Positions 3,192-3,950 are shown, counted from the first letter of the stretch. The stretch is 64,000 nt of DNA from an uncultured Clostridiaceae bacterium (GCA_964371585.1 CAYJMD010000003.1:14631-78630), one strand, 5' to 3'. Made by a program: numbers and translations. Notes: generated by a model from the letters alone, not told the origin.

Positions 3192-3950
3192 TTAATTTGG
3201 TTGATCTGTAGTCTGACCATTTTCTCCTTCTTCTAAAAATTCATTTCCACTAGAACCTCCAGAAGCTGGTGGTGTATCTAAAACATCTCTTCCAATATCA
3301 ATAAAGAAATTAAGAACATTTATAATAGCATATACTAATATTAGTCCTATTACCATCCTAATAAGTTGTCCTTTTATTTGACCTTTCACATCTGCTGGTG
3401 AAAGCATATATTTAAGACCAATAGCAATGACTCCAGATATCGCTAAAAGATTAATTATTGGATATAAAGTTGACCAAATCATACCTATAACGTCATCAAC
3501 TGTTTGTTGTTCTCCAACTGAGAAAAATGCAGCTGATAAGAAATCATATAATTCCGTAGCTAAGAAGAACATAGCTACTCCTACACCATATCCAACTAAT
3601 GATTCTTTAACCTGAGCTTTACCATCTGCTGGTGCCCATATATATTTAAGACCAATTATAATCCCTACAACAATGATTATAAAACCGCCAACTTGAATCA
3701 CTACAGGTTTAATTATACCATCTATAAGTGCTGTTATATCATCACCAATTCCTAGTCCATCCGTTGCTCCGCTTGGGTTAAACCAATCAAAAGCTCCCGA
3801 AATAATATCATCAAACTCACCAGTATTTGGTGTATTGTTAGTTCCTCCAGAATCAATACTTTCTGAAGCTCCTAATACTTGTAAATGATTAAAAGCACTA
3901 AAAACAGTAAATATTAAAATCAAACTGATTATAATTTTATTTTTATTCAT
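3192..3950 (-). CDS. fused double VirB2/TrbC-like pilin protein
   Basis: ATG at 3950 after a GGGGGA SD (the track start 3965 is a TTG inside the leader). Signal-like N-terminus, then two copies of the pilin unit: IIGLKYIWAPADGKAQVKESL.. and AIGLKYMLSPADVKGQIKGQL.. Confidence 0.7.
   Translation of the reverse strand: MNKNKIIISLILIFTVFSAFNHLQVLGASESIDSGGTNNTPNTGEFDDIISGAFDWFNPSGATDGLGIGDDITALIDGIIKPVVIQVGGFIIIVVGIIIGLKYIWAPADGKAQVKESLVGYGVGVAMFFLATELYDFLSAAFFSVGEQQTVDDVIGMIWSTLYPIINLLAISGVIAIGLKYMLSPADVKGQIKGQLIRMVIGLILVYAIINVLNFFIDIGRDVLDTPPASGGSSGNEFLEEGENGQTTDQPN
3291..3728 (-). repeat. internal tandem duplication of the pilin two-helix unit (coding)
   Basis: Unit 1 at about 3537-3728, unit 2 at about 3291-3491. 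Both align with residues 50-115 of the 125-aa pilin at 4044-4421. Confidence 0.7.

Follow-up and report, generated by a model that had tools for sequence, protein, structure and literature searches.

A conserved fusion of two VirB2-type pilin units, predicted from sequence, in a type IV secretion locus of uncultured Clostridia

Introduction

What is a pilin gene that encodes two unlike hairpins in one polypeptide, and what might its product do in a member of the Clostridia? The question is raised by a minus-strand gene in a 64,000-nucleotide stretch of DNA from an uncultured Clostridiaceae bacterium (GCA_964371585.1, CAYJMD010000003.1:14631-78630). We refer to this whole stretch as the window, count positions from its first nucleotide, and call the gene A-B after the two units, A and B, of its product. 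It lies beside the gene for a single 125-aa pilin, here called S, in a locus that carries parts of a type IV secretion system (T4SS). Comparisons of sequence, profile and predicted structure support a firm reading of A-B as two VirB2-type pilin units joined covalently into a genuine and conserved heterodimer, within a vertically inherited Clostridia T4SS.

Two VirB2-type units in one chain

An earlier note on this DNA, made from the sequence alone, had described a tandem of two VirB2-like units at 3192-3950, preceded by a Gly/Ser/Thr-rich spacer and followed by an acidic tail, and had proposed aligning both units with the neighbouring single pilin. This description holds. BLASTP aligned unit A with unit B (residues 70-137 and 151-215) at 29% identity over 69 columns (E 1e-9), and unit B with the S pilin at 45% identity over 73 residues (E 7e-22). 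Smith-Waterman scores set against 2000 composition-preserving shuffles gave z values of 10.6 for A/B, 8.6 for A/S and 26.6 for B/S, with 0/2000 shuffles scoring as high; the A/B repeat is therefore not a by-product of hydrophobic composition. The Pfam TrbC/VirB2 profile (PF04956) matched A-B at 30.9 bits, above its cut-off of 27.9, in two separate stretches.

The related T4SS_pilin profile (PF18895, cut-off 26.6) scored 22.1 bits on A-B and 22.0 bits on S (P0002), while several homologues do carry a precomputed PF18895 match and homologues also carry precomputed PF04956. By these scores A-B would be a borderline relative of T4SS_pilin. An NCBIfam scan returned no match for the double pilin. 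Three features of the TrbC/VirB2 class are present in A-B: a profile score above cut-off, the signal-peptide and hairpin architecture (predicted, twice in tandem) and a VirB3/VirB4 neighbourhood.

The open reading frame (ORF) runs from an ATG at 3950, with GGGGGA before it, to a TAA. A TTG at 3965 is unlikely to be the start because relatives share the position of the ATG at 3950. The signal segment has its hydropathy peak at residues 6-24 and ends VYA, VQA or VFA in relatives. Behind it lies the spacer (residues 28-47), rich in Gly, Ser, Thr and Asn, and then a short helix whose motif, F-L-x-x-I-F-x-x-G-x-x-F-F, is kept across the A-B family. The stretch that spans the linker between the units reads ...FFSVGEQQTVDDVIGM.... 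Residues 218-252, which include the C-terminal tail, hold 8 acidic residues and 1 basic one. Across the family the tail has a median length of 0 aa and exceeds 15 aa in only 23/173 proteins, so the acidic tail of A-B is unusual for its family and, unlike the N-terminal helix, not conserved.

Predicted structure and topology

An AlphaFold2 (AF2) model of A-B, built on a 67-sequence alignment, reached a predicted local distance difference test score (pLDDT) of 75. It comprises a signal helix (residues 3-20), a disordered G/S/T/N-rich stretch, a short helix (45-57), four long helices and a disordered tail. The long helices pair into two hairpins, with only ~3 non-helical residues between the units. 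Charges are distributed unevenly along the chain: the two hairpin loops carry +3/-2 and +3/-1, the linker 0/-3 and the tail +1/-8, and residues 28-81, the exposed segment that leads from the signal peptide up to the first helix, sum to -9. This pattern follows the positive-inside rule and, as far as sequence can tell, fits a double hairpin that crosses the membrane through four transmembrane (TM) segments as out-TM-in-TM-out-TM-in-TM-out. Topology was another check named by the earlier note, and both the charges and the AF2 helices are compatible with a double pilin hairpin. The two ends of a VirB2 hairpin face outward, which probably explains why hairpin fusions recur: such units can be concatenated without breaking the topology.

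The loops of units A (window 3600-3650) and B (3370-3420) both contain P-A-D in this genome (WAPADGK and LSPADVK), and relatives read SGVEGK in the A loop, SSADTK in the B loop. The likeness of the two loops in A-B could reflect convergence or intragenic conversion. A second small likeness concerns the exposed termini: the S pilin ends ...GDGTTTNNTP (window 4044-4070) and the mature double pilin starts ...GGTNNTPNTG (3830-3860), with the motif TNNTP common to both. A GtrII-like polytopic protein (6732-8222) and a TraX homologue (5948-6778) are encoded nearby, and glycosylation or acylation of the pilins may be possible.

A family of multi-unit pilins

The fusion is no isolated oddity; the database survey suggested by the earlier note uncovered a large unnamed family of two- to five-unit pilins. 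A HMMER scan over 1.84 billion representative proteins returned 490 relatives of A-B at E<1e-3, of which 142 reached E<1e-10; most of the relatives align with residues ~45-224 in a single stretch that takes in both units. A unit profile (hidden Markov model, HMM) built from the A and B halves was used to count units in 177 collected proteins: 173 held two or more, with two units in 161, three in 9, four in 2 and five in 1. A word-indexed search found no name from any source on the proteins it returned. Literature searches on fused or tandem VirB2 pilins, on VirB2-like pilins in Bacillota and on PF18895 found no description of such fusions in the open-access literature searched.

Many relatives are elaborated outside the two units. 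More than 120 aa precede unit A in 54/173 multi-unit relatives, up to ~500 aa, and one protein carries 559 aa after unit B; these N- or C-terminal add-on domains had no Pfam or NCBIfam match. Close relatives of A-B have insertions in the N-terminal part. The A-B homologue of one related species (L006:8331-9056) has in this exposed part an insertion of ~40 aa with a CxxC...CxxC pattern that resembles a zinc ribbon.

Origin of the fusion

We built a maximum-likelihood tree of 91 units over ~78 columns, in which many forks were unresolved. The A units formed one group (85/88), the B units grouped with single S pilins (96/99), and the S pilins grouped with the third unit of triple proteins (98/86). 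The tree shows that A, B and S are three long-standing paralogue types and that some lineages also fused S, in the order A-B-S. The two halves of A-B are accordingly old, distinct paralogues and not the outcome of a recent duplication. A different history is seen in P0052, P0056, P0100 and P0117 (3-5 units), which represent separate recent internal duplications.

A sister family in the same order, f2 (L009-L011), has no double pilin. It has a stand-alone gene that scores 50-57 bits on the A model and 30-47 on the B/S models, and this A-type gene directly precedes one to three genes of B/S type, after which come PrgI, an unknown protein and VirB4. Type-specific HMM scores were used for this assignment, the unit tree with sister-family pilins being too poorly resolved to place the f2 A-type genes with the A units of f1. 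The f2 arrangement looks like that expected for an unfused ancestor of A-B and, since its A- and B/S-type genes are separate and adjacent, A-B probably arose by gene fusion. In another family, one locus (L012) encodes a double pilin whose two units cluster with its own single pilins, which suggests an independent fusion. With fusions in both f1 and L012, joining of neighbouring pilin genes appears to have happened repeatedly in this pilin family.

One source of a fused gene would be faulty assembly, or a frameshift error, by which two neighbouring pilin genes were merged. The separate A and B genes of sister lineages are all that speaks for it, and the same fused frame occurs in 35/36 independently assembled genomes of the family and in >160 database clusters without internal stops. 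We therefore reject this reading as having next to no chance of being correct.

Intergenic signals and evolutionary rate

The S and A-B genes are separated by a terminator-like hairpin, and the RNA of 3951-4046 folds at -23.2 kcal/mol (z=-4.7). The same AUAUUACAAGA...UCUUGUAAUAU hairpin is found at this S/A-B position in L002, L003, L004 and L007, with a variant in L006 (5/7 related loci). Downstream of A-B a strong terminator-like site precedes a near-consensus promoter-like site ahead of the PrgI/VirB3-like gene; the two pilin genes therefore seem to form a separate unit that S leads.

The motif ATATTACA / TGTAATAT is repeated directly, with TGTAAT-N5-TGTAAT spacing, ahead of both the pilin and the PrgI operon, and is conserved across species. 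Its sites lie at 3965-4002, 3127-3160 and 4560-4590 in the window and also in the intergenic regions of L002-L007.

Evolutionary rate varies widely along the locus. Within one set of genomes, four of which are in the same genus as the window, mean pairwise identity was 35% for unit A, 38% for unit B, 60% for S, 57% for VirB3 and 81% for VirB4. By this comparison A-B is the fastest-evolving part of the locus.

Proposed role of A-B and its alternatives

We propose, with a probability of roughly 0.45, that A-B is an uncleaved, low-abundance, specialised pilin acting as a tip, nucleator or adaptor, and that S is the bulk subunit. Having arisen by fusion of adjacent genes, A-B would lose its signal peptide and its chain would lie in the membrane as out-TM-in-TM-out-TM-in-TM-out, with both basic loops cytoplasmic and the N-terminal part, the A-B linker and the C-terminal tail outside. 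S, which is conserved and encoded by the first gene, would supply the bulk of the subunits, and A-B would be made in smaller amounts by read-through of the intergenic hairpin. Still uncleaved, A-B would then join S in one VirB4-driven assembly, as a pair with a fixed 1:1 ratio. Its S-like B unit would dock onto S subunits, and a terminal or specialised layer (tip, nucleator, adaptor) would be formed by the divergent A unit together with its variable add-ons and exposed N-terminal helix. In this manner A-B would take on the function that Gram-negative systems assign to VirB5; a VirB5 was not recognised in the locus.

The hairpin with its U-tract between S and A-B counts for a lower dose of A-B. 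The low A/B identity, the large add-on domains and the N-terminal insertions count for a specialised, exposed protein. The earlier note had already suggested a base, tip or adaptor role, and that suggestion fits the upstream hairpin, the fastest evolution in the locus and the extra domains of relatives, while the role itself is still a proposal.

Several observations weigh against this proposal. Reviews describe monoderm T4SSs as lacking VirB2 (PMC4027160, PMC12857230), so that the pilus itself is something we infer here. Fast evolution also fits a major exposed subunit. The TGTAAT inverted repeat that forms the S/A-B hairpin recurs upstream of operons, and the hairpin may be a candidate DNA-binding site for a regulator, instead of or besides a terminator. 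Matches to known structures were marginal or generic: the profile found VirB2 among PDB sequences at E 0.075 (8cue) and E 0.38 (8exh), and a Foldseek search of the PDB with the AF2 model returned only generic helical bundles (best E 0.64), helical hairpins being non-specific. The linker might also be cleaved, although we consider this unlikely.

Cleavage would make A-B a polyprotein precursor: after a single insertion the chain would be cut within the extracellular linker between A and B, giving separate A and B pilins in a strict 1:1 ratio; three- to five-unit relatives would then be a cheap way of delivering many pilins per insertion event. T4SS propilins are heavily processed, with the leader of F TraA removed and RP4 TrbC and VirB2 trimmed and cyclised, and a cut at the linker would be in keeping with this. 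The second helix of unit A runs from in to out, as a signal peptide does; linkers are rich in small residues (FFSVG/EQQ in A-B, ...SSA/SS and ...TAA/SN in relatives); and some relatives have 4-5 near-identical units (P0052, P0056, P0100). No linker column, however, is kept as a small -1/-3 pair, the aligned position being occupied by Q, E, T or P in several members. At ~25 residues, the helix that leads into the linker exceeds the usual length of a cleavable h-region, the AF2 model runs as a near-continuous helix-turn-helix with ~3 non-helical residues between units, and no dedicated protease gene was recognised in the locus. On balance we judge the precursor an improbable account of A-B.

Two further alternatives place A-B elsewhere in the machine. 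It could be a co-major subunit that co-polymerises with S along the whole filament or replaces S conditionally, giving a surface-diversified heteropolymeric pilus. Arrays of 2-5 divergent pilin genes in relatives, with a parallel in Patescibacteria (PMC12102498), are consistent with this, as are the fast evolution of A-B, which would suit an abundant exposed antigen, and the A-B-S fusions of some relatives, which imply that all three sit side by side. We nevertheless hold it to be very doubtful, given the conserved hairpin with a U-tract between S and A-B and the large N-terminal domains, reaching up to ~500 aa, that a third of the family carries and that would be hard to fit on every lattice position. 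Alternatively, there may be no pilus at all: the VirB2-like proteins would stay in or just outside the membrane as a channel through the thick wall, with A-B as a pseudo-dimeric block of a short conduit. Pili have never been seen from monoderm T4SSs (PMC4027160, PMC12857230), Gram-negative VirB2 is needed for transfer even when no pili are visible (PMC12857230), and the pilin-like hairpin embedded in a 334-aa polytopic protein of this locus hints at use inside a membrane complex. For part of a channel one would expect the evolutionary pace of VirB3/VirB4, not a fall to 35% identity within a genus, and the large extracellular add-on domains of relatives suggest exposure; a conduit is thus quite unlikely in our estimate.

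Distribution and inheritance

Related loci were sought with a 10-sequence alignment. The locus order, including pgi and the SSB-like gene, was found in seven other species-level metagenome-assembled genomes of Clostridia. We then considered 61 related genomes of 1.1-1.8 Mb, mostly >95% complete. The pilin profile matched in 59/61, with 2-10 matches per genome in relatives, and a full-length double pilin was present in 35/36 genomes of the same family. The relaxase-like protein was found in 57/61 and the VirD4-type coupling protein (T4CP) in 60/61. When 250 genomes were sampled evenly across the class, hits of the pilin profile were confined to this order (9 genomes), with 0/241 in 70 other families. 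The genome that holds the window is 1.18 Mb long, has 26% G+C and is 100% complete by marker count.

The T4SS is a chromosomal, vertically inherited core trait of an order of small-genome, uncultured Clostridia. A mobile-element origin of the locus is ruled out by its synteny next to pgi in 7 species and by the near-universal presence of its parts in the order. The order may be TANB77; a paper on a 'conserved pilin' of TANB77 concerns a Tad/type IVc pilus cluster that is unrelated to the T4SS described here (PMC11680825).

Comparison with known systems

A-B resembles A. tumefaciens VirB2, RP4 TrbC and F TraA (PF04956) in its signal peptide, two-helix hydrophobic hairpin and short basic loop, in a gene that adjoins VirB3- and VirB4-like genes, and in its PF04956 score above cut-off, to which the marginal profile match to 8cue and 8exh can be added. 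It departs from them in having two non-identical hairpins in one polypeptide. It occurs in a lineage of Clostridia, from which pilins of this class are said to be missing; VirB5, VirB7, VirB9 and VirB10 were not recognised in its locus, and that locus is chromosomal and vertically inherited, not carried by a plasmid or an integrative and conjugative element.

As a whole, the system most resembles the VirB2-array T4SS of Patescibacteria. Both are of monoderm type (VirB3, VirB4, VirB6-like protein, cell-wall hydrolase) with several divergent VirB2-like genes next to virB4 (PMC12102498, PMC12857230), and both occur in small genomes as systems conserved within the lineage and not on mobile elements. 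The Patescibacteria belong to a different phylum, and their arrays consist of 2-11 separate genes, whereas here two types are fused, with up to five units in relatives. A relaxase-like gene and a T4CP are kept here, unlike in most Patescibacteria clusters, which lack a relaxase.

Bartonella Trw and the virB2 paralogues of Anaplasma/Rickettsiales likewise have divergent paralogues side by side and pilins that evolve faster than the machine. In those cases diderm pathogens carry the genes as tandem copies, whose presumed use is variation of antigens or host range, and we know of no covalent fusion among them. The closest functional analogue would be VirB5, a minor pilin and tip protein: the role proposed for A-B is likewise that of a low-copy, fast-evolving, exposed subunit that starts or caps a VirB2 fibre and has binding functions. 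The two have no relation in sequence or fold, A-B being built of VirB2-type hairpins. Set against the MPF-FATA-like machinery (mating pair formation type FATA) of monoderms, the system gives mixed results: VirB4 with its CD1110 match and PrgI are both below cut-off, M23 hydrolases are present, Replic_Relax is above cut-off, and the T4CP lies on another contig.

Textbooks and recent reviews describe Gram-positive (monoderm) T4SSs as lacking VirB2 pilins, with Patescibacteria as the single exception (PMC4027160, PMC12857230). The present locus adds a second monoderm lineage, inside the Clostridia, with conserved VirB2-like pilins, and covalent tandems of two to five hairpins are a pilin architecture for which we found no description in the open-access literature searched. 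A natural fused heterodimer fixes which pilin types are neighbours and so offers a built-in constraint on the packing of a VirB2 lattice and on how a pilus might start without VirB5. The system belongs to the core of a prevalent, uncultured, small-genome gut lineage and is a fast-evolving feature of its surface, which makes it a candidate for a part in that lineage's DNA exchange and in its interactions with other cells or a host. A further-reaching scenario, which we regard as unlikely, is that this order-wide T4SS, passed on vertically and dispersed over the chromosome, makes a VirB2-type pilus, which would be the first one known in Bacillota; the system would then compare with the essential T4SS of Patescibacteria. 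Fused A-B would in that case be a tip or specificity module replacing VirB5, and relatives with 3-5 units would covalently bridge neighbouring lattice positions.

The surrounding locus

Along the minus strand, as transcribed, the genes are pgi, a large polytopic protein, the TraX homologue, the SSB-like protein, a divergent M23 peptidase (on the plus strand), S and A-B. The order continues with the PrgI/VirB3-like protein, a 492-aa anchored protein, a 660-aa VirB4 and a 334-aa polytopic protein, beyond which lie four membrane-anchored proteins without family match, an 870-aa M23 hydrolase and later a Replic_Relax-family protein. Features of the window are collected in Table 1. S is probably the major pilin. 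Other locus proteins had no family match in Pfam or NCBIfam, and VirB5, VirB7, VirB9 and VirB10 were not recognisable.

Table 1 Features of the A-B gene and its neighbourhood in the window.
Feature	Position	Strand	Details
Fused A-B double pilin gene (P0001)	3192..3950	-	252 aa, stop codon included; ORF list and translation
A-B signal peptide, ~residues 1-28	3867..3950	-	Predicted; MNKNK n-region, hydrophobic core, ...VLG/A
Exposed N-terminal part, residues 29-65	3756..3866	-	G/S/T/N-rich spacer and conserved amphipathic helix (FDDIISGAFDWF)
Unit A, residues 66-147	3510..3755	-	Helix, loop KYIWAPADGKAQVKES, helix; unit HMM domains; AF2 helices 68-105, 108-147
Unit B, residues 148-226	3273..3509	-	Helix, loop KYMLSPADVKGQIKGQ, helix; AF2 helices 151-183, 186-224
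A-B C-terminal tail, residues 227-252	3195..3272	-	Acidic, G/S-rich, lineage-specific; pLDDT 53-59
Single S-type VirB2-like pilin gene (P0002), 125 aa	4044..4421	-	Pfam TrbC 26.5 bits, just below cut-off; first gene of pilin pair
PrgI/VirB3-like two-helix membrane protein, 113 aa	2673..3014	-	Weak Pfam PrgI, E 0.026, 15.5 bits vs cut-off 27; 51-62% identical in seven syntenic loci
492-aa membrane-anchored protein between VirB3-like and VirB4 genes	1195..2673	-	No family match; 46-56% identity in seven syntenic loci
VirB4-like ATPase, N-terminal 394 of 660 residues	1..1182	-	Gene continues upstream of window (L001:13830-14630)
Secreted M23 peptidase, 169 aa, candidate cell-wall hydrolase	4637..5146	+	Pfam Peptidase_M23 E 3.9e-21; divergent from pilin genes
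SSB-like protein, 209 aa	5143..5772	-	Pfam SSB E 8.4e-20; syntenic, 57-64% identity
TraX-family acyltransferase homologue	5948..6778	-	Pfam TraX E 9.5e-21; same position in L006, L007, L008
Terminator-like hairpin between S and A-B	3965..4002	-	A-tract, 17-bp stem, U-tract; just before A-B ribosome-binding site
Intrinsic-terminator-like site after A-B	3154..3186	-	AACCAGUGGCUAAAAUAGCCCUGGUU then U7; terminator scan and fold
Promoter-like site ahead of PrgI/VirB3-like gene	3044..3071	-	TTGAAA, 16 nt spacer, TG, TATAAT; 11/12 matches; consensus match only
Promoter-like site ahead of S pilin gene	4457..4485	-	9/12 matches, TG extension; consensus match only

The VirB4 fragment in the window matched the NCBIfam CD1110-family VirB4 at E 1.4e-45, with 155.9 bits against a cut-off of 325 and 394 residues scored. 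VirB4 is 76-84% identical across the syntenic loci, while glucose-6-phosphate isomerase (pgi) is 59-70% identical, and by this comparison the secretion ATPase appears more constrained than a glycolytic enzyme. In 6/7 syntenic loci, M23-domain ORFs of 166-177 aa, picked up by their match with the 870-aa M23 protein, occupy roughly the position of the window's small M23 peptidase. TraX of the F plasmid acetylates F-pilin, and the TraX homologue here has a putative link to the pilins.

The 334-aa polytopic protein after VirB4, possibly VirB6-like, is encoded just upstream of the window (L001:12801-13805, on contig G000:C3) and has a pilin-like hairpin embedded in it (...SAMVIGIKLAITTIASEKAHYKEAL...). 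Its match to the pilin-unit HMM is at E 4e-5 in this genome and at 1e-6 to 1e-9 in relatives, where homologues lie at L002:7466-8452, L005:5638-6585, L006:13122-13883 and L007:12894-13853.

The Replic_Relax-family protein scores 36.6 bits against a cut-off of 25.3. Its gene (L001:3009-4034) lies ~15 kb from the pilins, is single-copy and is 65-80% identical across the family; a relaxase-like gene is not usually so conserved, which speaks for a fixed role in the cell. The T4CP (660 aa) scores 262.7 bits on PF02534 and is encoded on another contig (G000:C5:25455-27437, L018), among the housekeeping genes secDF, frr, tsf and rpsB. In five relatives it is apparently split into pieces of ~170 aa and ~500 aa, with in-frame stops between them.

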